Of a stretch of DNA of 64,000 nucleotides, positions 1,237 to 55,827 are shown piece after piece. A program made the position numbers and the translations under genes. This stretch comes from Chiloscyllium plagiosum (Eukaryota), in the NCBI RefSeq assembly GCF_004010195.1, contig NC_057749.1, forward strand, positions 6,291,933 to 6,355,932, given 5' to 3'. Below the pieces are notes generated by a model. That model did not search any database. It saw nothing but the letters and a program-made list of their open reading frames with translations, and had not been told where the DNA came from. Every line of letters starts with the position of its first letter. The first letter of the stretch is position 1.

Positions 1237-1270
1237 CTGATGATGTTAGCTAGTATGGTGATGCAACGTC
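1237..1270 (+). ncRNA. Degenerate hammerhead-like motif (family D, Penelope terminus)
   Basis: CTGATGA-TGTTAGC-TAGTAT-GGTGAT-GCAACGTC; the core GAAA is mutated to GCAA. Confidence 0.55.
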
Positions 1271-1469
1271 TGAAAACAAACCCATCATCAGCAAGCAGAC
1301 AACCTGCTAATCCTCTTGTCAAAAGTAAGAATGACAGCCACACAAATTCAACTCACACCCAAACAAGGGAGAGAAAAGGCCACTAAAACCAATATATCGA
1401 GTACCCTGCTTCCTGTTCACAGTCAGTGATATACATTTATTTGTATTAGCTTTTGGAGCTGGATTCATA

Positions 1470-1997
1470 TGATCAGATAGACAGGATAGTGAAGAAGGTG
1501 TTTGGTATATTTACCTTTATCAATCAATGAATTGAATATAGAGGTTGGGGGTGTCATTTGCAGTTGCAAAGGCCATTGGTTAGGTTACTTTTGGAATACT
1601 GTGAACATTCTGGTCTCCCTGCTATAGGAAAGATGTTATGAAAATTGAAAGAGTTCAGAAAAGATTTACAAGGATGTTGCCAGGGTTGGAGGGTTTGAGC
1701 TATAGGGAGAGGCTGAATAGACTGCGGCAGTTTTCCCTGGAGCATCAGAGGCTGAGGGGTGATCTTATAGAAGTTTATAAATCACGTGGGGCATGGATAG
1801 GATGAATAGTCAAGGTCTTGTCCCCAGGGTAGGGGAGCCCAAAACTAGAGGGCATGGGTTTAAGGTGAGAGGGGAAAAATGGGAAGGGTATAGGATTTGG
1901 GCTAAATGCTGGCAAATGGGACTAATTTAGAAAATCTGGTCGACATGGATAAGGTGGACTGAAGGGTCTGTTTCTGTGTTGTACATCTCTATGACTA
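1470..1997 (+). mobile_element. CR1/HER1-type LINE, 5'-truncated
   Basis: RT C-terminal region followed by the TCTCTATGACT tail shared with many copies in the window. Confidence 0.9.
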
Positions 1998-2863
1998 ATG
2001 AGAGTATACATGGCTCAGTTATTCTTGCTATAGGTTGCTCCTCCAAGTTAGAGCAATAGGAAGAGGCAATAACCTAAAGATGATTGTCACCTAACTAATA
2101 ACCCAGTGACCTCGGGTCCCAGGTTAGATATCCCACAATCACAGAAAATTGAACTTAATTTCAATGTGAAATCTGAAATTAAAACTCTAACAATAACCAT
2201 GATGTCATTGTCAGAAAAAACTCATCTGGGACTGTGATTTCCAGCATTTGTTGTTTTCCTCAGGTCTTAATTTCTTTTTGTGGTTAGTTGGTTATCTCTA
2301 TGGGTTAATGAGCACCGGGTCCAGAACTATACCTGAGCTTGTTTTGCATGAGCAGTTTTCTCTGTGCTCCAGGTCCTTCTAAGGAGCCAGCCGTTCCTTC
2401 CAACAAGGCTGCTGCTGTCTGTTTAATTGGACACCATGTGCCCTTTGCCCAATTAGGATATTTACATTGAAGAACAGCAAAGCAAGAATGGTGCCACTGA
2501 GCCTGAGGTCAGGATATGGAATTTATCTTGAGTTTAGGTTACTGAGCACACTTTGAAAATCTGGGCCCATAATAGCCCAATTTTTGTCCAATTTTGCCCT
2601 CAACATTTGAAAGAAGTCATGGTGTAGTGGTAATGTCACTTAACTTGTAACTAATAGGCGTATATTAACATCCTCACATGTGGTTCAAACTCCATCATGG
2701 TAGTCAAGGGATTCAATATTTAAACAACAAATGTGGAACATAAAGAGCTGTAATGGTAGTGTCTTTATCTCTGACCCTGGAAGCTGGATTCAATTCTCAC
2801 CTGCTCTGGAAGTATGTAATAAAACTTTAAAATCCAGAAGCTCTTACACCCAACTGAGCTAGC

Positions 2864-3190
2864 TGGCATGATAGCTCAGTTGTTAGCACTGCTACTTCAC
2901 AGTGCCAGGGACACCGGTTCGATTCTACCCTCAGGTGACAGTCTGTGTGGGGTTCGTACATTCTCCCCATGTCTGTGGAAGTTTAGTCCCACAGTCCAAA
3001 GATGTGCAGGCTAAGTGGAGTGGCCATGCTAAATTGCCCCATATTGCTCAGGGATGTGCAGGCTACATGGGTTAGCCATGGGAAATGTGGGGTTATAGGG
3101 ATGAGGTGGATCTGTGTGAGATACTCTTCAGAGGATCAGTGTGGACTCGGTGAACCAAATGGCCTGCTTCCATGTTTTAGGGATTCCACT
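2864..3190 (+). mobile_element. HE1-type tRNA-derived SINE
   Basis: A box TAGCTCAGTTG, B box GGTTCGATTC, shared body, CR1-like 3' tail. Confidence 0.85.
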
Positions 3191-3302
3191 AACTTTTCTT
3201 TCACCAAATCACACAAGGTATTTTTGCATTGATTAACCCCCACCAGTTAATCTCCTGTGTTTTCAGATTGGTTAATGAGCATGCACAGCCTGTTAAGGGA
3301 AA

Positions 3303-3520
3303 CATGATGTGGAGGTGCCAGTGTTGGACTGAGGTGGACAAGTCAGAAGTCACATGACACCAGGTTATAGTCCACCAGGTTTATTTGAAATCACAACCTT
3401 TTGGAGCCCTGATCCTTTATTAAGGTGAAGTGACCTTGGTGAAGGAGCAGTGCTCCGAAAGCTCGTGATTTCAACAACCCTGTGGGACCACAACCTGGTG
3501 TTGTGTGTGACTTCTGGCTT
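3303..3520. mobile_element. Fold-back hammerhead cassette (family B)
   Basis: Inverted arms; GAAGGAGCAGTGCTCCGAAAGCTC motif; 12-bp TSD TGTTAAGGGAAA (3291-3302/3521-3532). Confidence 0.8.
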
Positions 3521-3734
3521 TGTTAAGGGAAATGCAGACCATCAAAGGTGATGGACAGGTAGGGAGAGTGGGAAGAGACTCAATCAAAATGGAATTGAAA
3601 GGGGTTGAACATGTTGATAAGAAAATATTTGTAAATGAGGGGTAGTTGGAACACAGAGGATGTTACTTGAGAATTGTGAGACTGAGCAATTCAATTAACT
3701 ATTTTTTTTAAATGTTTGGAATATAGGAAGCTCC

Positions 3735-4070
3735 TGTGGTGCCAGAAGTAATGTCCCTATCTCTGAGCAAGGAAATTAGGTTCAAGTCCCAGTGGCTTCA
3801 GTGGTGTGAAATAACATTTTTGAAGGGGGTAATTAGAATAATCTAGAATGTAAAGCTAGCTGCAATAATGGTGAGTATGACAATTATTGTCAATTGTTGT
3901 AAAAGCCCATCTGGTTCACTGATGTCCTCAAGGAAGAAAATCTCCCATCCTCGTCTGAACTGGCCTACATGTGACTCCAGACCTGCAGCAACTCTGTAAT
4001 AGCTCAACAAGCCACTCAGCTCAAGGGTTTTTAGGTTTGGGAAACAAGTAATGAAAGAATAAAAAGAGAG
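3735..4070 (+). mobile_element. Old tRNA-derived SINE (family 2)
   Basis: Shared core CCCATCTGGTTCACTGATGTCC...TGGCCTACATGTGACTCCAGAC, also at 8470-8750, 9055-9275 and 29996-30351. Confidence 0.7.
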
Positions 4071-4174
4071 AATAGCACATTTCCAGGAATGGGAAAGGTA
4101 GTATTGTTGAGTTAACTTTACAACGACTGAGTTAAATTCCATGGCCAATATTTATCATTCAACCAAATCATCTC

Positions 4175-4530
4175 GTCATAGAATCCCTATTCTATGGAAA
4201 GAGGCCATCCGGCCCATCATGGCTGCACTGTCCCTCCCAAAGAGCACCTTACCCAAGCCCAGCAGTGTGGTGCTGGGAAAGCACAGCCAGTCGGGCAGCA
4301 TCTGAGGAGCAGGAGAATTGACACTTCAAGCATAAGCTCTTCATCAGGACCCAGCATTCCCTCACTATCATTTCCCATCTGTGCACATCTGTAGACTCTT
4401 GGAAGAAACCTGATCACTTGTTAGAAATCCACACCGACAATGTGCAAACTTCACACAGGCAGTCTTCCAAGGCTGGGATCAAACCCGGATACCTGGCACT
4501 ATGAGACAGCAGTGCTGACCACTGAGCCAC
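4175..4530 (-). mobile_element. HE1-type SINE interrupted by a family A cassette (about 4262-4348)
   Basis: SINE head at 4480-4530 and tail at 4175-4225; internal TGCTGGGAAAGCACAG...TTCATCAGG insert. Confidence 0.75.
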
Positions 4531-5219
4531 TCTTGACCACACTGCTATTTATGGGAGCTTGCTGTGAGAGGATAGGCTAGCATGTTCCCAACATTAAAAC
4601 TCATAGTGAGGTGCATTTAGATTATATCCAGAGAGATGCTATACAAATGTACACAACCTTTTTCTTTTTACCATTTGCCTGGGACATATCACTTACCAGG
4701 AACAAGGACAAATCTTTCTCAAATTTGCTCCTTCCATGACATCGAGCTTCTCTGGTGACAGGCCTGAGAGGTAGGCACGAATTTACGTTCAGAATCTGCA
4801 TCCCATTCCAATTCCTAACTGAGTATTTGGCACCAGGAAACTGCAGGGAGGGTTTACAGATCGCACTATCACAAAGACCATCACCAAACCACACCAAATG
4901 TGCCTGGAACAGGCTATTCAACCCAATTGGTCCAATAGTGGTGTTTATATACCACACAAGGTGGCTTCTGTTCCTCTTCCTCTCACCACACTGGCATATT
5001 CACTTCTCCATGGCAATGCCTCCCACAACCGGAGCCACTGCCAACCAATCTGCACTCTTGTCTCATCCAGTATAGAATGTTCTTCCTCTTTCCATTGTTC
5101 TGATGGGTGCAAGATGAACAGCTTTGAGAAAATAGGTCAGTCTTCAACATTACCCACATTCCTTTCTCCTTATGTATTTATTTAAATACACCTGAGCTAA
5201 CAGATTAAATGGTGATAGT

Positions 5220-5345
5220 GATGATGAAGGAGCTGAAACATTAACTGTGCTTCCATTCCACAGATCCTGTCAGACCTGCTAAGTTTTCCCAGCAAGTTCT
5301 GCTTTTGTTTCTGATTTCCAGCATCTGCAGTCCTTTGGGATTTTT
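5220..5345 (+). mobile_element. Decayed family C cassette
   Basis: GAAACATTAAC...CAGACCTGCTAAGTTTTCCCAGCA...TCCAGCATCTGCAGT matches 29870-29963. Confidence 0.6.
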
Positions 5346-5434
5346 AAAAAATATAAAACCATGCCTGGTTCATACTGCCCTCTAATGGCTATCAGGCCCG
5401 TCTCTTTTATAAAGTGCCAGACACTTATAGAATG

Positions 5435-5580
5435 ATGTGGAGGTGTCATGTTGGACTGGGGTGGATAAAGTCAGAAGTCACACAGCGAAGTGACCTGATG
5501 AAGGAGCAGTGCTCCGAAAGCTTGTGATTTCAAATAAACCTGTTGGACTATAACCTGGTGTCATGTGACTTCTGACTTTG
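5435..5580 (+). mobile_element. Fold-back hammerhead cassette (family B)
   Basis: Short inverted arm plus long arm; 7-bp TSD TAGAATG (5428-5434/5581-5587). Confidence 0.8.
5493..5527 (+). ncRNA. Minimal type-I hammerhead ribozyme motif, intact core (family B)
   Basis: CTGATGA-A-GGAGC-AGT-GCTCC-GAA-AGCT-T-GTGA: core bases present, perfect 5-bp stem II, palindromic AGCT in place of helix III. Confidence 0.75.
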
Positions 5581-6721
5581 TAGAATGTGGCTGGTTCCTT
5601 TTTGGCCCTCAAACATTGAGCGAGTATTTCATCAGACTCCACTTCAGGATTAATTCCCTTAGGTTAAACACTTCAGAGAGCCACATTTAGCAACTGGAAA
5701 AAGTGAACTTGCTGGGGGTCTGAGCTTTCGGCAACTCAAACAAGTTAAAAGAAGCCTCTCCACACGGAGAGTAGCGAGGATGTGGAAGTCACTGTAGCGT
5801 AGAGTGGTTTGAATTATAGAGTACAGAAGCAACTCTTTGTCCCATTAGGTCTACACCGACAAAATTACTCTAATTCTGCATTAGCCCCATTGGTGAGGTG
5901 AACAATACAACTGCATTTGACGGAAAACTGGATTAATGCCTGAGGGAGAAGGTTATGGTGTCAGAGTTCAATGAAGTGGATTGAGAGAATGTTAATGTGG
6001 AACATGGGCCATTTTTGCATAGAACTGCACTAGGAATATGAATAAATTAACTGATATTTCAACTAAGCCTTGACTTGTCGAATACATTATTGGAAACATA
6101 GGATCTGCCACCCTGCCCAATTGAATTGAACACAATTGCACTCATTGACAGCCTTGAATAGACTTCAAACATTAGGCTTTCTTTTAAGAGCGATAGATAC
6201 AGTTTAAATTCAATATACTCTTTCTTTTTAATTTACTAAGGATCTGACTGTGCATCAAAATATTTTTGTTTAGTTTTTAAAAATTGTCTTCAATTGCATT
6301 CCTCATAGGTGATGGATTGGCACTCTGATTATAACAAACTTTTACGTAATAAGAGCATTTGGAACCATGTCAATGAAATTTGACCTCCTCTTAAATACAT
6401 CAACATATAATTATTTCTTAAAAGCCAATGTTTCAAGGTTTTTGAAATGACGGCTCATGGCATGTTCAGCATCCACTAAAGTGAAACTCGTAAAAGTACT
6501 TTCCTCAGAGTTTTGCTAGGGTTTGGAAAATGCTGCCTGGGAGAGTGATGGGGGCAGATTCCACTGGAGGCTTCAAAAGAGAGCTGGATGCATATTTGAA
6601 AGTGATGAAGTTAGAGGGTTATGGAAATAGGGTTGGAGAATGAGACTAGTTGGGTAGCTCTTTTGTAGCCGGTATAGATATGATGGGTTGAATGGCCTCT
6701 GTCTGTACTGTAAATTCTCTG

Positions 6722-6940
6722 TAAAGTCACCCTAGTCTTACCAGACGATAGGAGTGCCCTCTCATTAGAGAGAGACAATTGGTGTTGGTTTAACCTAAAG
6801 GTCAGCATGCCTCAGGTGAGGGGAGAGGTTGAGCAGGAGAGCCCTTCTTGGTGATCTCAGATGATGCAGGAATTGAACCCACGCTGTTGGCATTATTCTG
6901 TATCGCAAGCCAACCATCCAGCTGACTGAGCGAATGGCCT
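6722..6940 (-). mobile_element. tRNA-derived SINE (family 3)
   Basis: Minus strand has GCTCAGT...GGTTCAATTCC boxes. Homologous copies at about 18925-19040, 48395-48612 and 55828-56035. Confidence 0.7.
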
Positions 6941-7033
6941 CATTAGAAACAGTCCTCTCCAAACAAGAATACATTATTTGAGCCTTACCTGAAGGGGTAT
7001 TTACCTTAAAGCAAATCAGAGGAATAGAGGAGG

Positions 7034-7592
7034 TCATAGAGTCCTAAAATCATGGAGATATGTGGCACGGAAACAGACCCTTCAGTCCAACTTGTCCATA
7101 CTGATCAGATATCCTAACCTAATCTAGTCCCATTTATCAGCATTTGGCTCATATCCCTCCAAACCCCCTATTCATATACCCATTCAGCTGCCTTTTAAAT
7201 GCTATAATTGTACCAAGCTCCACTACTTCCTCTGGCAGCTCATTCCATACACGCACCTCTGCCCTCCACGTGAAAAATGTTGCCTCTCACCTTCCCTTTA
7301 AATCTTTCCCCTCACCCTAAACCTATGCCGTCTAGTTCTGGACTCCCTCATCCCAGGGAAAAGACCCAATCCATGCCCCTCATCCCCTCATAATTTTATA
7401 AACCTCTATAAAGTCGCCCCTCAGCCTCCGACACTCCAGGGAAAACAGCCCCAGTTTATTCAGCCTCTCCCTATAGCTCAAACCCTCCAACATCCTTGTC
7501 AATCTTTTCCGAATCCTTTCAAGTTTAACAACATCCTTCCAATAGGAAGGAGACCAGAATTGCACGCAATATTCCAAAAGTGGCCTAACCAA
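7034..7592 (-). mobile_element. CR1/HER1-type LINE, 5'-truncated
   Basis: ORF 7380-7604 LVRPLLEYCVQFWSP...RRLRGDFIEVYKIM plus 3' tail. Confidence 0.9.
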
Positions 7593-8467
7593 AGCAGAGG
7601 TCAATCAAGGATCACTCTCTTGGGAGCACAAAGATGTCTCGACACTGTCAGAGACACTAATCAACACCAGCAACATTTGGGCATTCCCAGCAGTGAACAC
7701 TGATCGCCGCATGCTCAGAATCGCTCCTCTCCCTAATAAGGTAAAAAGCTTGTTCCTCTGACAGTGCACGGACTGCTCGGTTGAATATGACAACTGCCCT
7801 GAGGCAGAGATGGCCCATAATTACTCCACAGGAGACATTCCACTGATAAGGCCAGAATGAAACAGCACTCAGGCAGTAATCAGTTTTGAGTAGTAAAGCA
7901 ATAGCTAATTCAAAGTCATTTACAGCTTTCACACCCAGACTTGATGAAAGAACTATGCGCAGTGCAGCTCCTTATATTAGTTGGAAAGATATTCTTGCAC
8001 CTGTTTTAAGGAAATGATAGAATTTAGTTATGAAGGCAAACAAATGACATTAGAGCAGGGCTTCCCAAAGTGGGGTTCAGGACCTCAAGTGAGCTCACCA
8101 GTTGTAGATTTACAATCTCCCAGGGATCAAGGACTGGCCTCGCTTGCCCCAGGCTGGAATAGGTTTCCTCCTCCTCCCCCGTCTCTCATTGAGAGCTCGC
8201 AACAGTATTTCGGCCTTGAGATGGGGTCATGGTGGGAACATGCTCGGGAGGCGCCGCACTAGCATCTGAAGTTCTAACTCCCAGTGGGGCCCATATGGAA
8301 ATGGAAGACAGTGGAAGCTTGTGTTGTTGACAGACACATGCCATTTTCCTGACTTTATCCCACTCATGGCCATTTTCCTGAACGGTGGATAGGGAGAAGC
8401 TTTCCTTTTGTGAGTGGCAGGTAGGGTAAAGGACCTAACAAGCCATAAAGGCCAAATAGGAGATGCT

Positions 8468-9275
8468 GGCACAGTGGCAATCCAGGAGCCAAGGCTACTA
8501 CTCTGAGGTCACAGGTTCAAGTCCTGCCATAGTGGAGTTTGAAATAAATCTAGCCGATAAGGCTAGGAGGTGAACATAGCAACTACTGTTCATTGTTATC
8601 TAACAGCTTCCCTAAAGTCATTTAGGGAAGGAAATCTGCTCTTCTTACCTGATCTGGCCTCTAAGTGACTGAGATCTATAGCAATTTACTTGACTCTTAA
8701 ATAGCCTAGCCAGCCATTCACCTTTGGGGGAACTTTAAGGATAGGCTGTGGAGAAGTTCATTTAGTCCTTTGAATGTGCTATGACATTCAATGGTTGATG
8801 ATCCAACTCAGTCCTCTGTTCCTGCTTTGTCCCTTCAGCCATCTATCTTCTTCTTGAGAACATTCAATGTTTTGGCCTTGCCCATTCTCTGTAGTAGAGA
8901 ATTCCACAAGCTCACCACTCTGTGGGTGAAGACATTTCTCCTCATCTTAATCCTAAATGGCCTACCCCATTTCCTTCAACTGTGACCCCCGGTTCTTGAC
9001 TCCCATGTCATTAGGAATGTCCTTCCTGCATCTAATCTCTCTAGTCCTGCTGGAATCATCGATTGTTGGCAAAACCCATCAGGTCCACTAATGTTTTTCA
9101 GGGAAGAAAATCTGCTGTCGTTACCCAGTCTGGCCTACAAGTGACTCTAGACCAACAGAAATGTGCTTCTTAAGATGGCTCTTAACTGCCCTCTGAAATA
9201 GCCTCATACATCTTTCAGTCCACAAGCAGTTAGAGACGGCCATCATATATTGACTTTGCCAGCAACACACAGATG
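8468..9275. mobile_element. Family 2 SINE pieces flanking an old minus-strand CR1 3' end (about 8750-9055)
   Basis: SINE core at 8610-8710 and 9070-9200; CR1 segment GAATTCCACAAGCTCACCACTCTGTGGGTGAAGACATTTC between them. Confidence 0.65.
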
Positions 9276-9284
9276 CGGTGAAAA

Positions 9285-9615
9285 AGCATGGTGTGGTAGG
9301 TCAGTGGTTAGCACTGCTGCCTCACAACACCAGAGATCCAGGTTCGATTCCACCCTTGGGCGACTGTCTGTGTGGACTTTGCATGTTCTCCCCGTGTCTG
9401 CGTGGGTTTACTTCGGGTGTTCAGGTTTCTTCCCATAATCTAAAGATATGCAGGTGGATTAACCATGGGAAATTGCCTACAGTGTCCAGGGTTGTGCAGG
9501 CTAATTGGGTTAGCCATGGGACATGTTAGAGTAGGGTTGGGGGTGGAAGTGTGCGATGGTCTTTGGAGGGTTAGCGTGGATTTGGTGGGCTGAATGGCCT
9601 GCATCCACTCAGTAT
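9285..9615 (+). mobile_element. HE1-type SINE
   Basis: TCAGTGGTTAGCACTGCTGCCTCAC...GGTTCGATTCC head and shared body. Confidence 0.85.
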
Positions 9616-9658
9616 GAATAAAGAGGGAAAATAATGCACCATCTTTAGTTTAAGGTTA

Positions 9659-9735
9659 GAAAAGCACATCAGGTCAGGCAGCGTCCGAGGAGCAGGAACA
9701 TCGACGTTTTGGGCAAAAACCCTTCATCAGGAATC
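9659..9735 (-). mobile_element. Family A hammerhead cassette fragment
   Basis: Minus strand reads CCTGATGAAGGGTTTTTGCCCAAAACGTCG; core G>A change at a CpG. Confidence 0.75.
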
Positions 9736-10159
9736 GCTGCTTTTATGACCTCTCTGAAAAAAAAAGCCAAGGACAGCATAACCCTTTTAAAGGAGCAACA
9801 TCATTACAATATATACCATGAGATTGCAGGTTGCATTGCAAAGCCTATCAGAAAGATTGTGTTCAATGTCAAGCAGCAAGGAGGAGTCTAGCACAAGGCT
9901 TTGTGCATTGAGCACACTCTTTTCCCAACATGGAAATGGCAGCCACCTGCATTGTCACACTTGTAGACCCAACCATGGCCGATGTGTGACCAGATGCCTG
10001 AATCCTGCCAATCAAGCTCAAATCAAAGTCACACAAACTCAGAGAGCTACAGTCATATCTGTGAATTACAGGGTCCAAAGAGATTCTAAAGGGTATCACA
10101 GCAATGCAGTAACCTGTCCCATAGTACTGTGAGCAGTTATGATCCTCTTAATTAACAAA

Positions 10160-11430
10160 AGGTAAGATTTCATTGGGATTAGTTTGATGAAGGTTCACTA
10201 GGATGATCCCTGTTCTGCAGGGATTGCCTTATGTGTAAAAGCTAAACCGGTCAGGATTCTACTCACTGGAGTTTAGAAAAATGAGAGATGATCTCATTGA
10301 AACATATCGGATTCTAAAGGGTAAGCACTGAGAGGATGTTTCCCCTCATGGGAGAGTCTAGGACTATAGGGCTTGGAGAGGCTTACATGGCTTGGAGAGG
10401 GTGGACGCTAGGAAATTGTTTCCGTTAGGCGAGAAGACTAGGACCCATGGACACAGCTTAGAATTAGAGGGGGTAAATTCAGAACAGAAATGTGGAGACA
10501 TTTCTTCAGCCAGAGAGTGGTGGGCCTGTGGAATTCATTGCTGCAGAGTGCAGTGGAGGCTGGGACGCTAAATGTCTTCAAGGCAGAGATTGATAGATTC
10601 TTGATGTCACAAGGAATTAAGGGCTACGGGGAGAATGCGGGTAAGTGGAGTTGAAATGCCCATCAGCCATGATTGAATGACGGAGTGGACTCGATGGGCC
10701 GAATGGCCTTACTTCCGCTCCTATGTCTTATGGTCTTATAGGGCATAGCCCAGAATAAAGGGGCACCAATTTAAGACTGAGATGAGGAGGAATTTTGACT
10801 CTCAGAGAATTGTGAGTACTTGGAAGCCATTGCCACAGAGAGCTGTGCAGGCAGAGTCATAGAGTCTTAGAGTCATGGAGATATACAGACCCTTCGGTCC
10901 AACCTGTCCATACCGACCAGATACCCCAATCCAATCTAGTCCCACCTGTCAGCACCTTTCCCCTCTCACCCTATACCTATTCCCTCTAGTTCTGGACTCC
11001 ACTCCAGGGAAAAGACCTTGTCTATTTATCCTATCCATGCCCCTCATGATTTTGTAAACCTCCATGAGGTCACCCCTCAGCCTCCAACGCTCCAGGGAAA
11101 ACAACCCCAGCCTGTTCAGCCTCTCCCTATAGCTCAAATCCTCGAACCCTGGCAACAGCCTTGTAACTCTTTTCTGAACCTTTACAAGTTTCACAACATC
11201 TTTCCGATAGGAAGGAGACCAGAATTGCACGCAATATTCCAACAGTGGCCTAACCAATGCCTTGTCAATATGTAAGGCTGAGACAGATAGATTCTTGATA
11301 AGAAGAGGAACCAAGGGTGATGTGGAATGGGTGGGAAAGTGAGTGTGAGGAATGTTGGATCAGCCATGATCATATTTAATGGTGGAGCAAGTTCAAGGGG
11401 ACAAATGGCCTCCTCCTGTCCTTACTTCTT
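10160..11430 (+). mobile_element. Old CR1 hosting two younger CR1 insertions
   Basis: Host resumes after a plus-strand insert (10373-10736, TSD TATAGGGC at 10365-10372/10737-10744) and after a minus-strand insert (about 10856-11264, ORF LVRPLLEYCVQFWSPSYRKD). Confidence 0.8.
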
Positions 11431-11449
11431 AACAGATTTTTAAAACATT

Positions 11450-11915
11450 TGATTCATTATTGTGACATGTACCTAGGTACAGTGAAAAGTTTTGTTTTGC
11501 ATGCAGTACAGGCAGATCTTACCATACAAAGTGCATTAGGGTCAGAGAACAGACTAAGGAATATAATGAAGGTGCATAAAGAGATCGATCAACATTAAAT
11601 TTAAAATTTGATTGGTCCATTCAGAAGTCCACTCGCAGCAGGGAAGAAGCTGTTCTTGAATCTGTTGCCGCATGTGTTTAAGCTTTTATATCTTCTTCCC
11701 AACAGATGAGATTGGAAGAGATTATAACTGGGATGGAAGGGGTGTTTGATGATGTTAGCTGCCTTCCTGAGGCAGTGGGAAATACAGATGGACTCAATGG
11801 ATGAAAAGTTGGTTTGTGTGATGGACTGGGCTGTGTTCACAATTCTCTGCAGTATCTTAAAGCCCTGGGCAGAGCAGTTGCCATACCCAGTCACGATACA
11901 TTCAGATAGAATGCT
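11450..11915 (-). mobile_element. Rex1/Babar-like LINE 3' end
   Basis: ORF 11601-11894 LQRIVNTAQSIT...HPFHPSYNLF...GRRYKS...RFKNSFFPAASGLLN resembles the Rex1/Babar C-terminus. Confidence 0.8.
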
Positions 11916-12675
11916 TTAGATCATTAGAATTGAGGCCTTGATCTGGGAGAGTGGGAGTAACTTCATGGAACACAAAGCTGGTATCTTCTGTCAAGAACAC
12001 AGCATTCAGTCTCTGATCACTGTGACTCCCTAGCACATGCTTTCGCTTGTTAACCAGGCAGTCTAGACTACAATAATTGGATACTGTGAGAAATTGGCCC
12101 CCATGGATCCCCCTCTCCTTTGCACCAGAATTAAATGGGTTATATTCTGTTTCAAACAAGCTGCAGAAACTGCAGTCAATTCATTGTGATTTAAGTTGCA
12201 ATACAAAAGAACGATAACACGGTAGACAAGTGATTAATTGCTTATTAACATTCTGCATCAGAAACACCTGCTAAAGTCCTTGAGGTGTCCAACTCAATTT
12301 GCAACCAAAACAAAACCTTTCTTATAAAAAATTTTTTAACAAATTTCCTGATCAACAAAGCTTGCCAGGTTCATGGAAGATATTTTTTATTCCTCCCTTT
12401 TCTGTCTTAGCAGAGATGCCAACCTGCTCAGAACTTGCCTATTTTTCACAATTTTGCAAAATTGCAATGGTATCACAGGTGGCCTCTGAAAGGACAAAAC
12501 TGTGATAATTTAAACTGAAAAGGGCAAGAGGTTTGGGGTCTAACTATGAAAAAGATTAATGTCCAAATCCACCATGCTGACAATGAAAGAGAAAAACAAA
12601 CTTGTACTTATGTAGGACCTTAAACAACCACAGGATTCCCCTAAACACTTTACAGCCAAACAGGCAGAGGAATGT

Positions 12676-12788
12676 AGGATGAAGGGCTTATGTCTCCTGC
12701 TCCTCAGATGCTGCCTGACCCGCTGTGCTTTTCCAGTGCCACACTTTTTGATTCTGATCTCCAGCATCTGCAGTCCTCACTTTCTCCT
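12676..12788 (+). mobile_element. Family A cassette with internally deleted hammerhead
   Basis: GATGAAGGGCTTATG joined to TCTCCTGCTCCTCAGATGCTGCCTGACC...CACTTTCTCCT. Confidence 0.75.
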
Positions 12789-12789
12789 A

Positions 12790-18485: not shown

Positions 18486-18513
18486 TTCTCTGGACATCAC
18501 TATTATTTGGGTC

Positions 18514-44887: not shown

Positions 44888-44975
44888 TCTCTGATGAAGA
44901 GTAATCTTGACTCAAAACATTAGCTTCCATGGATGCTGCCTGACCTGCTGTAATCTCCAGCATTTTTTGTTTTCA
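44888..44975 (+). mobile_element. Decayed family C hammerhead cassette
   Basis: CTGATGA-A-GAGT-AATCTTG-ACTC-AAAACATT...GATGCTGCCTGACCTGCTG. Confidence 0.6.
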
Positions 44976-46832
44976 ATCACCAATATCCCTTTGGGGCATG
45001 GTGCCTGAAGAGAGACAGGCATCAATTTCTGCCTATCTCCATCACAAATATGGTAGGATACAGAAGGAGGCGACTGAGCCCACTGTGTCTGTACTGGTGC
45101 TGGAAGATAACATAACTCCGGAGAAAGACAAAAGTTGATTCACACGCTGTCCCACAATCCTCTCTCAATCATGTTTCCTCTCAGATTAGTTTCTTGCAAT
45201 ATTATTTTCTGTAAGTGATAAGTAACATGGTTTGTTACAAATGCACTTCAGGGCTTGAATGTTTCACGAAAACTGAAATTCTTTAAACCCCAGTATAGGG
45301 GGCATGAGTAGAACGTGATCCGTTGAAGTGCATTAATCCTTACACTTTGGACTCAATGATCATTTATGAGTGTTTCTGAGTATACAATCTTTGACCTAAG
45401 CTGCAGGATGAACGATTAAATCTTCAGAAGATACTCCAGTTCGAAAGGTAAGGCATGTTCAGAGATAAGAACAGGAACCTCCACGAGGTTTATTAAGTTA
45501 GGGAAATCATCCCAGTGAGTGATAGCTGACCACCTGTCCTGTGTTAAAAGGCAGCTGCATGAAGGTTTCTGAGTGACAATGATTGCAACCACTCCTGAAA
45601 GAATGACTCATAAAAGGACATGGGCAACATTTTTTTTAAAAGTGCATCAGTTTGGCACTCTTACATTATTTGACTTTAATTAAATAAAAATCAAGGTAAG
45701 TAGTCTAAATAGCAGCAAATGCAGGATAAATAATGATAATAATGCAGTAGTATTCAAGTTGAAATGTTGCTTTCAAATCTTTGCTCAATATTCTATGAAT
45801 GCATTGGATTTAGAGAATTGCATTTCAGAAAGGTAGTGGACAATGAGTGAAAGATATTTTCCAGGATCAATGTGAAATGTATCAATCAGCCTCAGTTACA
45901 TTCCAGGCCTTTTGAAGCAATGGGTAACTTGGGTGACTGTCAGTTATTCACTCCCCACCCCCACCCCCCCATTTGAAATACAAGGGGAAGAATATCAACT
46001 GGTGTATACTGTTATTGGAGCATTTAGTAATCCAATCAGCTACAGTTTTTGACATCCTGATTTCCTATGAATACGTTAAGTGCTAAGAATAATTTTGATT
46101 AGCTTGTTTGCTGGGGAATGCTTAACACAGGAGAAATTGTGAAAGGATATCCCAATTATTTTTAAAATTGTACTTCTAAGAGTCAGAATAAACATGTGAA
46201 AGAAAAATAGCTACATCTTAACCTTCTGATTGTTCAAGATAATAAATGAATTACTGCAAAGTTTGGATTCATCAACATATATATATGTATATGTTATGCT
46301 GGATTAATCTATTTGTCACGACTGAATGTCACAATAGCAATGCTTGGACAGTACCACACCAGTGGCATAATATTTACCTCACTACATAATCTATAGAAAT
46401 ATTACTTTCCAGAAACTGATTATTATTGTATAAGACTGCGGCCTGAAAGGGTTAGCTTGAAAGTATTAAGAATAGTTTCACCCACTTACATATAAATGAA
46501 ACTTGATTGAGATTTTTGAGGAAATTTTTTTATCAAAAACGATTGAGGACAGAGGGGTAGATATTACTTACTTGGACTTCAGTAAAGTCTTTGACAAGGT
46601 TCCAAATGGTAGATTAATTAGTAAACTGAGATCATGTGGGATTCAGGTTGAGCTTGACAATTGAATAAAAAATTGGCTTTACAGTAGGAGAAAAAGGGTC
46701 ATGGTGGAGGGTTGTTTATTTGGACTGGAGACCTGTGACCAGCGGTGTTCCACAGGGATTGATGCTGGGTCTACTTTTGTTTGTCATTTATATAAGTAAT
46801 TTGGAGGGCAATATAGAAGACATGGTTAGTAC

Positions 46833-47312
46833 TAGCCAGTTTTGAGAAGATTTGTAGCTCAGGTTGAGGTTCTGGATATAGGTTTGCGCGCTGTGCTGGA
46901 AGGTTCGTTTTCACACGTTTCATTGCCATATTAGGTAACATCATCAGTGAGCCTCCAGATGAAGCACTGGTGTCTTGGGCCGCTTTCTATTTATGTGTTT
47001 AGATTTTCTTGGGTTGTTGATGTCATTTCCTGTGATGATGTCATTTCCTGTGTGAGACTTCATAGAAGTATGGCATTCCAACAGGAACTCTATCAATAAA
47101 CACATTGACTTGGATCCCATTTACCACTTGCAAGTACAGGAAATGACATCACCACTGGAAATGACATCACCAACCCAAGGAAACCTAAACGCATAAATAG
47201 AAATTCGGCCATGCCACCAGTGCTTCATCTGGAGGCTCACTGATGATGTTACCTAGTATGGTGATGAAATTTCTGAAATGAACCTTCCAGCTCAGCGAGC
47301 AAATCTACATCC
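46833..47312. mobile_element. Penelope-derived fold-back insertion with two family D hammerheads
   Basis: Inverted arms about 46866-47051/47137-47315 around the GIY-YIG C-terminus (WHSNRNSINKHIDLDPIY); exact 15-bp TSD AGACATGGTTAGTAC (46818-46832/47313-47327). Confidence 0.9.
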
Positions 47313-47617
47313 AGACATGGTTAGTACATTTGCAAATGTCACTGAAATTGCTGTACAGTGGACAGTGAAGATGGCTATCTAAGATTACAAAGACATCTTG
47401 ACCAATTGGGACAATGGGCTGAGGAATGGCAGAGGGAGTTTAATTTGGATAAATGTGAGCTATTGCATTTTGGTAAAACAACCAAGGACAGGGCTTATAC
47501 AATTAATGGTAGGGCATTGGGTGGCATTATAAAAAAGAGAGACCTCGGGGTTCAGGTACATAGTTCTTTGAAATTTGCATCACATATAGTGAGGTAAGAT
47601 GGCATTTAGCATGCTTG

Positions 47618-47741
47618 GAGACAGTGAGGACTGCAGATGCTGGAGATTAGAGTTGAGTGTGTTGCTGGAAAAGCACAGCAGATCAGGCAGTGTCCGAGAA
47701 GCAGGAGAATTGACGTTTCGGGCATAAGCCCTTCATTAGGA
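47618..47741 (-). mobile_element. Family A hammerhead cassette
   Basis: 14-bp TSD ATTTA(G/T)CATGCTTG (47604-47617/47742-47755); CTAATGAAGGGCTTATGCCCGAAACGTC. Confidence 0.85.
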
Positions 47742-48394
47742 ATTTATCATGCTTGCCTTCATTGTTCAGACCTTTTGAGTATAGGAGTTGGAATGTCACG
47801 TTGAGGTTGTACAGGATGTTGGTGAGGCCTCTTCTGCAGTACTGTGTGCCGTTCTGGTCATCCTACTATAGGAAGGATGTTATTAAACTGGAGAGGGTTC
47901 AGAAAAGGCTTATCAGGATGTTGCCAGGAATGGAGGGTTTGAGATATAAAAATAAGCTGGATGTTCTAGGACATTTTACATTGGACTATAGGAGGTTGAA
48001 AAGTGACCATATAGAAGGTTATAAAATCATGAGGGGCACAGATAAGGTGATGGGGGAGTTCAAAACCAGGGGGTGTATTTTTAAAGTGAGAGGAGAAAGA
48101 TTTAAAAAGGGAATGAGGGGTTGCTTTTTTACACAGAGCAGCTAGTGTATGGAATGAACTGCCTGAGGAAGTGCTGGTTGTTGGTAAAGTTACAATGTTT
48201 AAGAAACATTTGAATAGGTACATCAATAGGAACGATTTGGAGGGATATGGGCCAAATGCAGGCAGATGGGTCTGGTCTAATTTGGAAACATGGTCAATAT
48301 GGACTATTTGAACCAAAGGGTCTGTTTCTATGCTGTATGACTCTATGACCATCTGTAGGAGGAGCTAGTTAATTTGTTATTAGCTGTTAGCTAT

Positions 48395-49453: not shown

Positions 49454-49712
49454 TGATGTGGAGCTGCTGGTTTTGGACTGGGTAGACAAATTTAACACAG
49501 CACTAGGCTGCATCCCCTTTCTAAGTGATTAAAGGTTTAACAGCCATCTAAGTTTGTCTAATATATCACATCAGTTGTTTGATCTTTGATCTATAAATTC
49601 TGTGTACTACATATCCTGCTCCACTAGCTACCTGACAAAGGAACAGCATTCCAAAAGCTTGTACTTTCACATCAACCTGTTGGACTATAACCCAGTGTTG
49701 TGAAATTTTTAA
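49454..49712. mobile_element. Fold-back family B cassette, variant subfamily
   Basis: Exact 13-bp TSD CATCGTACCTTCA (49441-49453/49713-49725). Confidence 0.85.
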
Positions 49713-50984: not shown

Positions 50985-51880
50985 GTTGACAAAGGAGGCA
51001 TGCTGTCAACGCTTTTCAACTTGCACTCATCAGGACAAGTGCAAGAATGCCAAATTTCAAAGGGGATAATAATTTGTACTGCATGAGACTGTTATGGACC
51101 AGCTCAGACCCCTCAGAATATTTTAAGAAGATAGCCCAGATCCTAATTTTTTCTTATTTTAAAGACAAGTGTCTGTTCTTGATGCAACGCAACTGGTAGA
51201 ACCACTCTATGTTAAGCAAACCACAATTCATAAACACTGTAGTTAAAATGCAGCCAAAAAAAGAGGAATTTAGAATAACTTAACTCTATTGGAAAACTTA
51301 ACAGAATAATAGATACAGTACCTATTACAATTTAACTGTTCTAATATAATAAGATCCCATAAATACACCCCTTGGCCAAAAAAGTAAATTCAGACACAGA
51401 TTATCACATGCAGTTCTCCAATTCAGGAGGAGAAAGAAACATCAAGAGAAAATTTAAAGAAAAAGCAGCGAGGAAACATTCACTGAAGCTTCTGACTCTT
51501 TTTAGACCCCCAAAGGCTTCTGCTTAAAGTTAAACCTAAAAACTAAAAAAAAACAAGAAAGCCTGGCCTGTGAGAGCTGGCCGCACCCAGATTGCTTTCA
51601 TTGTTCCAACTTTAAAAACAAAATCCCAAAGCCTCCAAACTTGTTAACTCAAGTTTGCAGCATGCAACTTGGAGGGTATGTTTACAACCTCTCTTCAAAT
51701 AGTAACCCAGGACAAAATAACCACAGCATCATCACAAGACAAAATCAACATGCCAACCAATCGGCACACATTTTCTCAAGCCGTATAAATTGCTGCCCCT
51801 TTTGAAATTTCACATTCTTGCTTCTGTCTTAAGGATTGCAAGATAAAAAGCTTCAACAACATGCTTTTGTTCCCAACTAT
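50985..51880. mobile_element. Old palindromic element with hammerhead-like core (family E), split by an LTR
   Basis: Arms 50990-51085 and 51780-51880 are imperfect inverted repeats; minus strand reads GTC-CTGATGA-GTGCAAGTT-GAAAAGCGTT-GAC. Confidence 0.55.
51090..51736 (-). mobile_element. Solo LTR (Gypsy-like)
   Basis: TG...CA termini, 4-bp TSD AGAC (51086-51089/51737-51740); both ends homologous to 17826-18485. Confidence 0.88.
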
Positions 51881-51894: not shown

Positions 51895-53395
51895 CATAAA
51901 GTCCACCGTCTACAAGATATCAATCAGGAATGCGATGGAATACTTCCTGCTTGCCTGGCTGGGTGCAGCTCCAACACCACTCGAGGAACAGACACCATTC
52001 AGGGCAAAGTTGTACTCTTGATTGGCACCACATCCAGAGAAAGAGACCACTTTCGCCACCACTGATGCACCATTGCGGTAATGTGCACCACTGACAAGAT
52101 GCACTGCAGTAACTCACCAAGGTTTCTTTGATAGTACCTTCCAAAACCAAGACTTCTACTAGCTAGAAGGAAAATGGCAGTAGATGCATGGAACATTAGC
52201 ATCTATAAATCCTCCTCCAAACCACTCATCATATAAAAGATTTGGATGTGAGCATAAGAGGTATAGATAGTAAGTTTGCAGATGACACCATAATTGGACG
52301 TGTCAAGGGTAGTGAAGATTACCGCAGATTGCAACAGGATCTTGATCAGATGGACCAATGGGCTGAGAAGTGGTAGATCGAGTTTAATTTAGATAAATGT
52401 TCTAAAAGGAAAGCAAATTTTAAGCATGACTTATACACTTAATGGTAAGGTCCTAGGGAGTGTTGCTGAACAAAGAGACCTTGGAGTGCAGATTCATAGC
52501 TCCTTGAAAGTGGAGTCGCAGGTAGATAGGATAGTGAAGAAGGCATTTGGTATGCTTTCCTTTATTGGTCAGAGTACTGAGTACAGGAGTTGGGAGGTCA
52601 TGTTGTGGCTCTACAGAACATTGGTTAGGCCACTTTTGGAATATTGCATGCAATTCTGGTCTCCTTCCTATCGGAAGGATGTTGTAAAACCTGAAAAGGT
52701 TCAGAAAAGATTTACAAGGATGTTGTCAGGGTTGCAGAATTTGAGCTATAGGGTGGGGTTGAATAGGCTAGGGTGGTTTTCCCTGGAGCGTCGGAGGCTG
52801 AGGGGTGACCTTACAGAGGTTTATAAAATCATGAGACATGGATAGGATAAATAGGCAAAGTTTCTTCCCTGGGGTGGAGGAGTCCAGAACTAGAGGGCAT
52901 AGGTTTAGGGTGAGGGGGGAAAGATATAAAAGAGACCTAAGGGGCAACTTTTTCATGCAGAGGGTGGTACGTGTATGGAATGAGCTGCCAGAGGAAGTGG
53001 TGGAGGCTGGTACAATTGCAACATTTAAAAGGCATCTGGATGGGTATATGAATAGGAAGGTTTTGGAGGGATATGGGCCGGGTGCTGACAGGTGGGACTA
53101 GATTGGGTTGGGATATCTGGTCGACATTAACGAGTTGATCCAAAAGTTCTGTTTCTGTGCTGTACATCTCTATGACTCTATGACTCAGTCTGACTATGTC
53201 ACTGTTCCTTCAATATTGCTCAGCCAAAATCCTGGAACCTCCTTCATAAAAATTTTTTGGGTGCTCCCATCCCCTCAGGATTGCAGTGGTTCAGGAAGGC
53301 AGCTCACCACAGCCTTCTCCAGGGCAACTAGGGACAGGTAATAAATGCTGCCATAGCCAACAACACCCACATCCTATGAATGATTTTTTAAAAAG
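51895..53395 (+). mobile_element. Old non-LTR retrotransposon 3' region (clade uncertain), split by CR1
   Basis: STVYKISIRNAMEYFLLAWLGAAPT; homologous to 63165-63765; resumes at 53186. Confidence 0.7.
52232..53185 (+). mobile_element. CR1/HER1-type LINE, truncated
   Basis: KFADDT through RPLLEYCMQFWSP to the ATGACTCT tail. Confidence 0.92.
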
Positions 53396-54299
53396 ATTTG
53401 ACAGAGGCAGGAAGAATAAGCCATTGTTACATTGTTCACTCCACTCGACAAATTAGTTCCCAAAAAAATCTGTGCCAGTGATATGAAGGGACAACTAACC
53501 CCAAGAGTTTGTTGCTCAGTTGTAATACACTTTCTGAAGAAGCGCCATTGAATAATGAAGTGGTGGCAGGTAGCTAACCTCATTAAATTACAGAATTCTG
53601 CTAATCAGTGGTTGCAATAAGCCAACCATTAATCAGGAACTCTCTGCCACTGACCTTCGGAGTCAGAACAAATGAGCGAAACTGGGTTTTTACACCTTCC
53701 TTGAATGAATCAATTTGTCAGGTCTGAATATGTGATAATAAGGTGCCTTATGGCCATCTGAAATTAGTGAAGTTCTCTGCTGGATCAATGGCTGAATTCA
53801 AATGCTGTTCCCAGCAGACTACAAAATAATGGCCCTGTCATAAACAAATGGTGGAAGATTAATGGTGCTCACTTGGGTCTGTCATATTAGAGAAATCTAT
53901 TAGACCACGTGCCTAAAACTGAACTCAATCATTCTCAGGCAGCCTCCAGCAACTAATATGAAGACCTTGAGGACTTTTTGAGCTATGACCTTGAGAAAAA
54001 GTTGGGAAGTTCCTTTTTTTCCCAACCAGCTGACCAATACTTTTGTCATGATCCTTTTAAGAGTTTGTTCAAACTCTTGAACTCTAATTCGTTATAATCA
54101 ATTTAATGAATGTCAAAGCCATAATTGAACCATATGTCAGTCTTGTGACTGGCTCCAACTGGAAATGAGTGTGTAATAATAACCAGCGCACAGGGAGCAT
54201 AAATATTTCAATTCCACCATAGCTCTGGGTTACTGCTAACTGTGTGGATGTAGCAGGTAACAGGTGTTAATATGGAGTATGAATGTTTTTAACACTATA

Positions 54300-54425
54300 G
54301 GGGGCGGCACGGTGGCTCAGTGCTAAACACTGCTGCTTCACAGCACCAGGGACCTGGGTTCAATTCTGTCCGCAAACAGGTGATTGTTTTCCCTGTGTCT
54401 GCATGGGTCTCCTTTCACAGTCCAC
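54300..54425 (+). mobile_element. HE1-type SINE 5' fragment
   Basis: GGGGCGGCACGGTGGCTCAGTG head. Confidence 0.7.
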
Positions 54426-54574
54426 ACATGGATTTCAACACCAAGTCCTCAGAATATTACCTAGATCTGTGGACTACAAGGTCAGTGCATTCCCACTGCA
54501 CTGTTACCTCCCCACATTAAAGCCATAAGTCTCTGCCAATTGGTGCCTGGCTTCTTCAGTAATTTCTGAACATC

Positions 54575-54850
54575 TGTGTGCATGTCTCTGTACGCGTGTC
54601 TGTGTCTATGTGTCTGTGTTTATGTGTGTGTCCCTATGCATGCGTGTGTCTCTGCAGCTGTGTGAATGTGAGACTGTGGGTCTCTGCATGTGTGTGTGTG
54701 TGTCTGTGTGAGAAAATGTGTAAGTGTGTGCGTGAGAGAGAGTGTCTGTGTATGCATGTCTATATCTGTGTGTCTGAGAGAGTGTATGTGAGAGTGTGTG
54801 TATGTGAGAGTGTGTGTATTAGAGAGAGAGAGTGGAACAGTGTGTGTTTG
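54575..54850. repeat. Imperfect (TG)n/(GA)n microsatellite
   Basis: Seen directly. Confidence 0.95.
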
Positions 54851-55170
54851 TGTAGCAGGAAAGAAGATTCAGTGAATTACTATAAGTGACATCTTCATCC
54901 TTTGATGTCTTTTTAATAATGTTGGATTACCATCAAATTAAATCAAATCCTCCAGATAAGCAATTGTTTCAGATTGGCTTGCCTGGAATTTGTCAGTAAA
55001 ACATTGCCTTGCCCATATGCATTTTGCATTTATGATAAACATTTTAACACAAACTTTTATAATTAATACTCTATAATTTACTATCTAGATAATGTGTGTG
55101 GCATTACTGTATTCATTTGATTGTGACTTTAAAACCTCACTGATACTATATGCTTAGTGTAAAATAAGTA

Positions 55171-55298
55171 AAATATAAATTCTGTGTCCTACAATCTTAT
55201 ACTCCACAACCACCTGATGAAGGAGCAGTGCTGTGAAAGCTAGTGCTTCCAATTAAACCTGTTGGACTATAACCTGGTGATGTGTGATTTTTAACTTT
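55171..55298 (+). mobile_element. Family B hammerhead cassette
   Basis: CAC-CTGATGA-AGGAGCAGTGCTGT-GAA-AGCT-A-GTG; 12-bp TSD with 2 mismatches (55159-55170/55299-55310). Confidence 0.8.
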
Positions 55299-55827
55299 GT
55301 GAAATAAGCAGTATTACAAATGTGCAGGCAGTGTTATTGTTACAACTAGAGGATAAACTTAGAAAATAAATGTTGTGAATTTAGAAATTGACAAATTTTG
55401 ATCTGACGAATTTACTCAATATATTTGAGCATGTTGCTGATTTAGTTATTTTTCTTCCATGACCACTGATGGGGAGTAAGAGCATAAGAAATAAGAATGG
55501 GAGTAGGCTATTCAGCCCCTCAAGCCTATTCTGCAACTCAATGACCGAACGTTTGTGCCTACAACATCTTTCTCTTCTGTCCCTATGAGCCTTGATTCCT
55601 TACATGGTTAATCTTTTTATTAAATAAATAGTTACTGGATATTCTCCAAAAATGATTATTTCAATGCTACTTAAGTAGGAGAGTTAACTTAGAATAATTA
55701 TTTGGTTAAACAGAACGTGAGCATTGCTGATAAAGGAAATATCCCATTGGAGCATTTTGTCTCGCACTTATCAGGATGAGTGCAAGAATTCCAAATTTTC
55801 AACGGGAGAAACAATTTAGACTGCACG

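Follow-up and report, generated by a model that had tools for sequence, protein, structure and literature searches.

Minimal hammerhead ribozymes (min-HHRs) are known from metazoan Penelope-like elements (PLEs), where they were described in 2014 as massive, multi-family populations with several consensus families and thousands of copies per vertebrate genome (PMC4209133). They have been reported from fishes, the coelacanth (about 4,000) and Xenopus (about 9,000), where most of them are solitary or form close pairs with the partners on opposite strands; the main text of that paper does not mention sharks. Here we describe hammerhead-like motifs in a stretch of 64,000 bases from the shark Chiloscyllium plagiosum (contig NC_057749.1, positions 6,291,933 to 6,355,932), which is called the window below. 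The motifs are very probably minimal type-I hammerheads of the terminal module of PLEs, carried by dead insertions of at least four families, termed A, B, C and D. A preceding inspection of the letters of this DNA, which we call the sequence-only reading, had proposed about five families; four of these (A-D) were borne out, and the fifth (E) turned out to have no hammerhead topology.

The insertions of PLEs have characteristic features. They are highly 5'-truncated, often lie beside an inverted copy that is also 5'-truncated, and carry a tail of 30-40 base pairs (bp) at one end only (PMC8557442). The protein of PAc, a Poseidon-clade PLE from Anolis carolinensis, nicks and extends both target strands (PMC11167929). 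Reverse transcription of PAc begins internally, about 111-118 nucleotides (nt) after the start of the open reading frame (ORF), which itself lies within the hammerhead, and the tail corresponds to the stretch between two start sites. The hammerhead of PAc cleaves only with the protein, and uncleaved RNA is the main template.

The window contains one gap (23964-24865), has a G+C content of 43% and an observed/expected CpG ratio of 0.24; motif counts refer to the 63.1 kb of sequence within it. A search with the plain pattern CTGANGA-N8-30-GAAASSTH gave 7 matches, whereas 100 dinucleotide-preserving shuffles had 0.28 matches on average and never more than 2. A stricter descriptor, in which helix II must have at least 3 bp, helix III must be self-complementary and H17 must be present, gave 5 matches (5495+, 17095-, 19501-, 29849+ and 31395-), with a mean of 0.06 in 200 second-order Markov simulations and none in the reversed sequence. 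Scanning the whole window, with filters off, with a covariance model trained on 13 better-preserved sites of families A-D yielded 23 matches at E<=0.011, namely the 13 training sites and 10 new ones. Two further matches at E 0.1-0.26 bring the total to 25 sites, a density of about 0.4 per kb or about one per 2.5 kb; 15 weak matches at E 0.6-9.6 were regarded as chance. The proposal of more than 20 minimal hammerhead-like motifs thus holds. All 28 coordinates given in the sequence-only reading carry the motif assigned to them or a mutated version of it, and the copies at 19501-19528 and 5495, which it had called intact, are indeed so; the inverted partners at 3389-3430 and 25510-25537 had been overlooked. 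The sites are listed below by family.

19495-19534, minus strand: family A hammerhead; core intact, helix II of 4 bp, palindrome ACGU, H17 is C
37185-37224, minus strand: family A hammerhead; core intact, helix II interrupted by one mismatch; short arm of an inverted pair
37230-37269, plus strand: family A hammerhead; CG>CA in helix III; long arm of the pair with 37185-37224
4314-4352, minus strand: family A hammerhead; decayed, A15.1>G and CG>TG
9697-9736, minus strand: family A hammerhead; G12>A (CpG transition)
21192-21231, minus strand: family A hammerhead; G8>C; in the single insertion 21096-21229 with an 11-bp target duplication
22795-22834, plus strand: family A hammerhead; decayed, G12>A and CG>TG; within a compound cluster of partial copies (22714-23048)
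26692-26731, minus strand: family A hammerhead; decayed, G12>A and CG>TG
32902-32941, minus strand: family A hammerhead; CG>TG in helix III
47706-47745, minus strand: family A hammerhead; G5>A; in the single insertion 47612-47743, with a 14-bp target duplication abutting the 5' edge of the hammerhead
5489-5529, plus strand: family B hammerhead; core intact, helix II of 5 bp, palindrome AGCU, H17 is U
55208-55248, plus strand: family B hammerhead; core intact, 3' strand of helix II mutated
3389-3430, minus strand: family B hammerhead; heavily decayed; tailed arm of an inverted pair
3429-3470, plus strand: family B hammerhead; A6>G and a 1-nt insertion; untailed arm of the pair with 3389-3430
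25510-25537, minus strand: family B hammerhead remnant; short arm of an inverted pair
25550-25590, plus strand: family B hammerhead; A6>T; tailed arm of the pair with 25510-25537
34445-34485, plus strand: family B hammerhead; G12>C; single tailed copy
49626-49666, plus strand: family B hammerhead; decayed, G8>A and G12>A
29843-29884, plus strand: family C hammerhead; core intact; helix II of 6 bp in a bulge-free register
44886-44927, plus strand: family C hammerhead; decayed, G12>A and CG>CA
17089-17134, minus strand: family D hammerhead; core intact, helix II of 3+2 bp with one mismatch; the final 21 codons of the PLE ORF align just upstream of and into the hammerhead
31389-31434, minus strand: family D hammerhead; core intact; stop codon of the PLE ORF in loop II
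1231-1276, plus strand: family D hammerhead; A13>C; PLE ORF remnant 488-1250 upstream
46908-46953, minus strand: family D hammerhead; G at position 17; one arm of an inverted family D pair
47234-47279, plus strand: family D hammerhead; CG>TT in helix III, helix II of 6 bp; other arm of the family D pair

The hammerhead core, C3-U4-G5-A6-N7-G8-A9...G12-A13-A14-A15.1...U16.1-H17, is fully intact at 7 of the 25 sites. The least-decayed copy in each of families A-D has the full core, and the other 18 sites carry 1-5 changes. At 5489-5529, 17089-17134, 19495-19534 and 31389-31434 the intact core is accompanied by a helix II that is uninterrupted over at least 3 bp in the bulged register; the core-intact site 29843-29884 forms a helix II of 6 bp in another register, and helix II is damaged at 37185-37224 and 55208-55248. 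An unpaired nucleotide between A9 and position 10.1 is found at every site, and of 13 aligned sequences 7 have GC and 6 have GU as the pair 10.1-11.1. The length of helix II is 4 bp in family A, 5 bp in B and 6 bp in both C and D, and its sequence differs from family to family. A helix III hairpin is lacking; instead positions 15.1-16.1 form a palindrome of 4 nt, AGCU in B and ACGU in the other three families, which has been lost at 10 of the 25 sites, six times by CG>TG/CA. Helix I consists of three pairs that are 82% paired across the 13 sequences, all three having changed on both sides.

Covariation across families was scored on the three pairs of helix I and three basal pairs of helix II, that is 75 cells in 13 sequences. 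In this set 86.7% of the cells are paired versus 55.6 +/- 4.7 in shuffles, none of 500 reaching the observed value, and sliding the partners as a control gave at most 51%. Changes on both sides occur in five of the six scored pairs; pair 2.2-1.2, for example, is CG in 6, UA in 4 and AU in 3 sequences and is unpaired in none. That the core stays constant while stem II differs, as the sequence-only reading had described, was confirmed across families A-D. From the constant core and the cross-family covarying helices we conclude that the ribozyme is kept by selection at the RNA level in the source elements.

The inserted copies have a different fate. Both C11.1-G12 and C15.2-G16.2 are CpG dinucleotides in these motifs; the change G12>A has taken place at 7 sites, and 6 sites have CG>TG/CA in helix III, which together makes 13 of about 30 core changes. 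Pairwise identity among copies is 72-85% in family A and 61-85% in family B. The CpG transitions, the low CpG ratio of the window and the low identity indicate that the inserted copies are old and decay without constraint, and with two CpGs in core and helix III the ribozyme is lost early to methyl-CpG decay.

The relationship to PLEs can be followed directly in family D, for which the window contains the following features.

31518-32099, minus strand: open remnant of a PLE ORF (P0001), encoding a linker and a GIY-YIG-type endonuclease with a YIGQTGR motif
488-1250, plus strand: second, broken PLE ORF remnant, running into the family D hammerhead at 1237
46794-47394, both strands: inverted family D pair, each arm with about 90-190 bp of the ORF end upstream of the hammerhead

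The homology of P0001 continues in another frame through the hammerhead to 31415. P0001 is 57-70% identical to five shark proteins bearing a reverse transcriptase (RT), from Stegostoma tigrinum, Hemiscyllium ocellatum and Chiloscyllium punctatum, and shares 33% identity over 150 amino acids with residues 624-773 of P0010 (E = 9e-25). The latter is a protein of 813 amino acids with Pfam RVT_1 and GIY-YIG domains, of which the GIY-YIG match at 711-793 overlaps the region aligned to P0001; the endonuclease fragment P0001 itself gave no Pfam match. The RT part is absent from the family D copies in the window because these are 5'-truncated. In tblastn searches the C-terminus of P0007 runs through the hammerhead at 31627-31415, 960-1250 and 17177-17115; a further match reaches 47175, a short way before the hammerhead at 47240.

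The reading frame of the ORF closes, in each of the five family D copies, with a stop codon that forms the first triplet of loop II of the hammerhead (31395-31428, 17095-17128, 1237-1270, 46913-46947 and 47240-47273), preceded by a short terminal peptide of acidic-Val-Thr/Ser type. The TAG noted in the sequence-only reading as conserved in this loop is therefore the stop codon of the PLE ORF. The annotated shark proteins P0006 and P0007 end at the same stop, and two others read through a lost stop. In each of the five copies the ribozyme lies in the terminal (pseudo-long terminal repeat, pLTR) region in the sense of the ORF, with roughly 50 to at least 750 bp kept upstream of it; this variable upstream length is what 5' truncation of an autonomous retroelement should give. 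The physical junction of the family D hammerhead to a predicted PLE ORF remnant supports the PLE-type reading. The nucleotides A9-U-G10.1 spell ATG in another frame in family D, which is open for at least 24 codons in four of the five copies. An ORF start inside the ribozyme is not supported, as a 40-amino-acid query matched no protein and gave no alignment with the N-terminus of P0004.

Families A, B and C are built differently. They are units of about 95-135 nt, in which the hammerhead is followed by a terminal module; A and C, which had been listed separately, have a common downstream module. Profiles made from trimmed copies gave 24 A/C matches and 12 B matches in the window. Of the A/C matches 16 start within 10 nt of the hammerhead edge and 8 downstream of it, and for B 8 start at the edge and 4 downstream; no common sequence upstream of the edge was found among these 36 matches. 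Full-edge units start 2-10 nt before the hammerhead. The constant 5' end of A-C beside the variable one of D suggests that A-C may be separate short non-autonomous elements. The 3' ends fall into two classes about 40 nt apart, the longer class having what we call the tail.

The units occur either as single copies or as head-to-head inverted pairs with hammerheads or truncated ends in the center. Exactly one arm is tailed in three of three clean A pairs and in three of three B pairs, and arm truncations are all on the inner side. Because the outer ends of the pairs would be the priming ends and the truncations are all internal, the hammerhead strand is presumably the RNA sense in A-C. Target duplications of 10-18 bp flank 8 of 23 units, as compared to 15 of 297 random controls reaching 10 bp; a 13-bp match at 22915-23048 was an internal repeat and was excluded. 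Element and duplication meet 2-3 nt before C3 in the single insertions 47612-47743 and 21096-21229. Other insertions of these families are as follows.

3307-3523, both strands: family B insertion; head-to-head inverted pair, tail on left arm only, 13-bp target duplication
5437-5573, both strands: family B insertion; inverted tail-only fragment and direct untailed copy, 10-bp target duplication
18506-18649, both strands: family A insertion lacking the hammerhead; inverted short arm and direct 5'-truncated tailed arm, 18-bp target duplication
25451-25674, both strands: family B insertion; inverted pair, tail on right arm only, 13-bp target duplication
37128-37365, both strands: family A insertion; inverted pair, short left arm and tailed right arm, 16-bp target duplication
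35263-35559, both strands: family B inverted pair; arms truncated within or after the hammerhead and split by another repeat, 12-bp target duplication
29763-29930, both strands: family C inverted pair; head-to-head, deletion in the left-arm hammerhead
12678-12792, plus strand: family A copy; 3' half of the hammerhead deleted internally, tailed

The repeat splitting the pair at 35263-35559 is a different one of about 145 bp (35346-35489). Compound clusters of partial family A arms, with the tail region internally duplicated, are present at 32848-33219 and 22714-23048. Partial tandem copies forming pLTRs were not found in the window. The module shared by A and C, e.g. at 19436-19500 on the minus strand, contains a conserved 4-bp hairpin followed immediately by an AC-rich stretch, in which the 3' ends of the shorter class are located; no compensating changes were found in this hairpin. 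One inverted arm, 18506-18571 on the minus strand, has as its first nucleotide the one that directly follows the predicted cleavage site. This start resembles the complementary DNA (cDNA) of a self-cleaved template and may be one; as 1 of 12 truncated fragments it is within chance.

The sequence-only reading placed the motifs in multi-family retroposed repeats with minimal type-I hammerheads of the PLE kind, and this assignment gains support from the ORF link of family D, the PLE-type insertion architecture, the target duplications and the covariation. Its claim of a very large population agrees with a DNA run of the same organism, in which, for the region 1201-21200, repeat-bearing bins reach a summed depth of 10^5-10^6 (not a copy number) as compared to 10-18 for single-copy contigs. 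Many contigs from this run match up to 19530 or 12788 and then diverge, and at 19530 many contigs and reads from other copies end. Of two poly(A) single-cell RNA runs one gave no reads on 1201-21200; reads of the other cover the repeats there on both strands and mostly continue into unrelated sequence, so that other copies must lie inside longer transcripts. These reads form no end pile at the three intact sites of the region, in a library that cannot show 5'-OH or cyclic-phosphate ends; the only piles of read ends listed are at 1966, 20887 and 20890. At 10625-10739, about 115 nt of an abundant repeat lie under tens of thousands of poly(A) single-cell reads of one strand. These reads show the same differences throughout and are flanked by identical letters, which suggests a single highly expressed transcript from elsewhere with a related copy.

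The motif statistics, ORF link, insertion architecture, duplications and decay pattern observed here can be arranged in the following scheme. Family D is very probably the 3' end of an autonomous PLE, of which the RT-endonuclease ORF runs into the ribozyme; the final codons and the stop fall in CUGANGA, helix II and loop II, and terminal sequence of about 100 nt comes after them. Families A, B and C are most likely non-autonomous passengers, similar to short interspersed nuclear elements (SINEs), that would depend on the PLE enzyme and be copied by its reverse transcriptase. By analogy with PAc, the PLE protein would nick both target strands, and it is this use of both strands that would produce the inverted arms. 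Reverse transcription would start at either of two internal sites about 40 nt apart, giving tailed or untailed arms, and two cDNAs would join head to head, yielding single copies or inverted pairs between target duplications of 10-18 bp. As most copies here retain the whole ribozyme, uncleaved RNA is the probable template. Selection on the RNA would maintain the ribozyme in source elements, and after insertion the copies would decay neutrally. The ribozyme probably cleaves only as a dimer formed via the 4-nt palindrome, or with the protein of the element; dimer cleavage by min-HHRs was reportedly described by Lunse, Weinberg and Breaker in 2017.

A more specific proposal, plausible yet tentative, is that A, B and C are distinct ultra-short (about 95-135 nt) hammerhead-first retroposons, i.e. 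a PLE counterpart of the SINE. Such an element would consist of a ribozyme and a reverse-transcription start module, with the 5' end of its RNA fixed 2-5 nt before C3, and might reach a very high copy number in shark genomes. If the scheme is correct, the shark PLE packs the ORF stop codon, the ribozyme and the reverse-transcription start module into about 150 nt.

Several observations weigh against a hammerhead of PLE origin in all four families. Searches of Rfam gave no hammerhead match across the window at the gathering score or at E<=10, nor for two intact copies searched singly, which we attribute to the lack of a helix III hairpin in these motifs; membership among the min-HHRs is accordingly a prediction of our own descriptor and model that Rfam does not support. 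Helix I is only 2-3 bp long, and in family A its second-to-third pair is usually mismatched, 8 of 10 copies being unpaired at one position. The cross-family covariation signal is drawn from only about 4-6 independent lineages, and within family A, where helix II is 90% paired, 54 of 500 shuffles reach the observed covariation score, as is expected if the copies are neutral. Minimum free energy folding of intact copies gives the hammerhead fold for B and not for A, C and D, for which thermodynamic folding of monomers and dimers was uninformative. In the window, no autonomous partner of A, B or C was found, their terminal modules have no similarity to that of family D, and no family has a direct tandem pair of hammerheads, so that a cis dimer is not possible there. 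Self-cleavage by any copy is something we infer from sequence features.

Among other explanations, the one that deserves most attention is that families A, B and C represent no separate elements but ordinary pieces of autonomous PLEs that have been 5'-truncated, formed when reverse transcription stops at a folded or protein-bound ribozyme. This would be in line with PMC4209133, in which a relation to truncated PLEs is considered probable for most dispersed min-HHRs, with the strong 5' truncation typical of PLEs (PMC8557442), and with the truncated autonomous copies of family D that do occur in the window. However, none of the 36 A/B/C profile matches extends past the hammerhead edge, whereas all five D copies do, and the target duplications of the two single insertions abut that edge. 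Moreover, reverse transcription of PAc in vitro passes through the hammerhead region, a 5'-truncated template merely giving a shorter product (PMC11167929). We consider such an origin of A-C rather unlikely.

The units could also be of the retrozyme type, that is tandem hammerhead repeats whose transcripts self-cleave and circularise and which spread via small circular RNAs. Two sources lend this some weight: animal type-I hammerheads are often found in retrozyme-type repeats (PMC7229834), and a 2026 preprint derives vertebrate retrozymes from PLE pLTRs, including one cartilaginous fish, with families that are largely monomeric (10.64898/2026.07.22.740005). Retrozymes are nevertheless an improbable source of the copies found here, as same-family hammerheads never occur in tandem on one strand in the window, the ends are not circularly permuted but fixed at the hammerhead edge and at two 3' sites, and just one of the 12 5'-truncated fragments (18571) begins at the predicted cleavage site.

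That the inverted pairs are foldback elements or DNA transposons of the miniature inverted-repeat transposable element (MITE) type, the hammerhead-like motif being incidental, is very improbable. Several units are near-palindromic between direct duplications, as such elements would be, but the duplications vary in length (10-18 bp), the arms are unequal with one tailed and truncated on the inner side only, single-arm copies are duplicated as well, the same motif ends the PLE ORF in family D, and a constant core with covarying helices recurs across unrelated families. Finally, chance matches or by-products of repeat amplification with no ribozyme ancestry can practically be dismissed: amplification of one repeat does inflate any pattern count and covariation within family A is not significant, but four families with unrelated flanks and helix II have in common 11 core positions, the bulge, the loop-less palindrome and a compensating helix I, at an expected count of 0.06-0.28.

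Minimal type-I hammerheads of the PLE terminal module thus remain the preferred explanation for families A-D. Family E does not belong to this group. At 51005 and 55750 no hairpin is present between CUGAUGA and GAAA, and the model gave no match there at E<=10. The two boxes are only 9 nt apart, and the would-be strand of helix II pairs upstream of CUGAUGA, for which reason this candidate was rejected as a hammerhead. Family E (50995-51060, 55740-55805 and also 51774-51864) is a separate short repeat having a hairpin of 7-9 bp with CUGAUGA in its loop.

The window further contains a CR1-like long interspersed nuclear element (LINE) at 39994-42459 on the plus strand, with GDSL-esterase-like, AP-endonuclease and RT pieces in separate frames, and a second RT fragment of LINE type at 43371-43883 on the minus strand. 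Weak microRNA-like Rfam matches in the window are the inverted repeat pairs themselves. Three weak U6-like matches below the Rfam threshold (13724-13811 and 7452-7551 on the minus strand, 52662-52719 on the plus strand; E 0.22-8.4) may be U6-derived repeat fragments or chance.

These results leave the known picture of what such ribozymes are unchanged, and extend the PLE hammerhead picture to a shark, with four families in the window. Three details may be useful for studies of PLE transposition. The stop codon of the autonomous element lies within loop II of the ribozyme. Starts at the ribozyme edge, inverted pairs with one tail and target duplications are evidence from nature for the model of two strands and two start sites that was worked out in vitro with PAc, and the death of most vertebrate copies is explained by the two CpGs inside the core. 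The results also illustrate that reading a sequence with no tools can detect ribozyme-bearing repeats that Rfam does not flag. Shark hammerhead repeats do not occur among the literature matches listed, and a literature word search with three motifs from the window gave no match, neither of which proves that the shark families are undescribed.

Compared with the Rfam type-I hammerhead models, the copies in the window have the same catalytic core and lack the helix III hairpin. Another group of related elements is formed by the animal non-LTR retrozymes (LTR, long terminal repeat), which according to two sources (PMC7229834, 10.64898/2026.07.22.740005) are likewise short, non-coding and non-autonomous, carry a type-I hammerhead and are thought to be PLE-dependent, with monomeric derivatives reported. 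In the same sources retrozymes are tandem arrays with circular RNAs and mostly canonical hammerheads that have loop-loop contacts, whereas the copies in the window form no tandem arrays, have fixed rather than permuted ends and contain minimal motifs. The schistosome elements Sm-alpha and Sj-alpha are also short, dispersed, non-autonomous hammerhead retroposons, as cited in PMC6765202 and PMC6155905. They differ in that an internal promoter is followed by a canonical hammerhead (PMC6765202), whereas in the A-C units no promoter was identified and the hammerhead is at the extreme 5' end.

The likeness to PAc is closer. In both cases the hammerhead overlaps an ORF boundary, and about 100 nt downstream there are two alternative 3' ends about 40 nt apart. 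The geometry in the window, i.e. a ribozyme, about 85-95 nt and an optional 40-nt tail, with dual priming and templates that retain the ribozyme, corresponds to that of PAc, and the hairpin before the AC-rich stretch in the A/C module recalls the AC-rich stem-loop start site of PAc. Unlike in PAc, where the start codon of the ORF lies at the start of stem II, the ORF of shark family D has its stop codon in loop II, and the shark elements are known here from their sequence.

Families A-D are members of an already published kind, the min-HHRs of PLEs (PMC4209133). Similar to the published motifs, they have CUGANGA and GAAA cores with an extra unpaired base before helix II and G-C at 10.1-11.1, no helix III hairpin, a self-complementary 15.2/16.2 (CG or GC in the four family types) and a short helix I. 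They also form several consensus families and occur as dispersed singles or opposite-strand pairs. The published spacing of such pairs is 100-700 bp, whereas those in the window can be as close as 10-20 bp, head to head, and the density of sites found here, if it held genome-wide, would far exceed the 4,000-9,000 copies published per genome.

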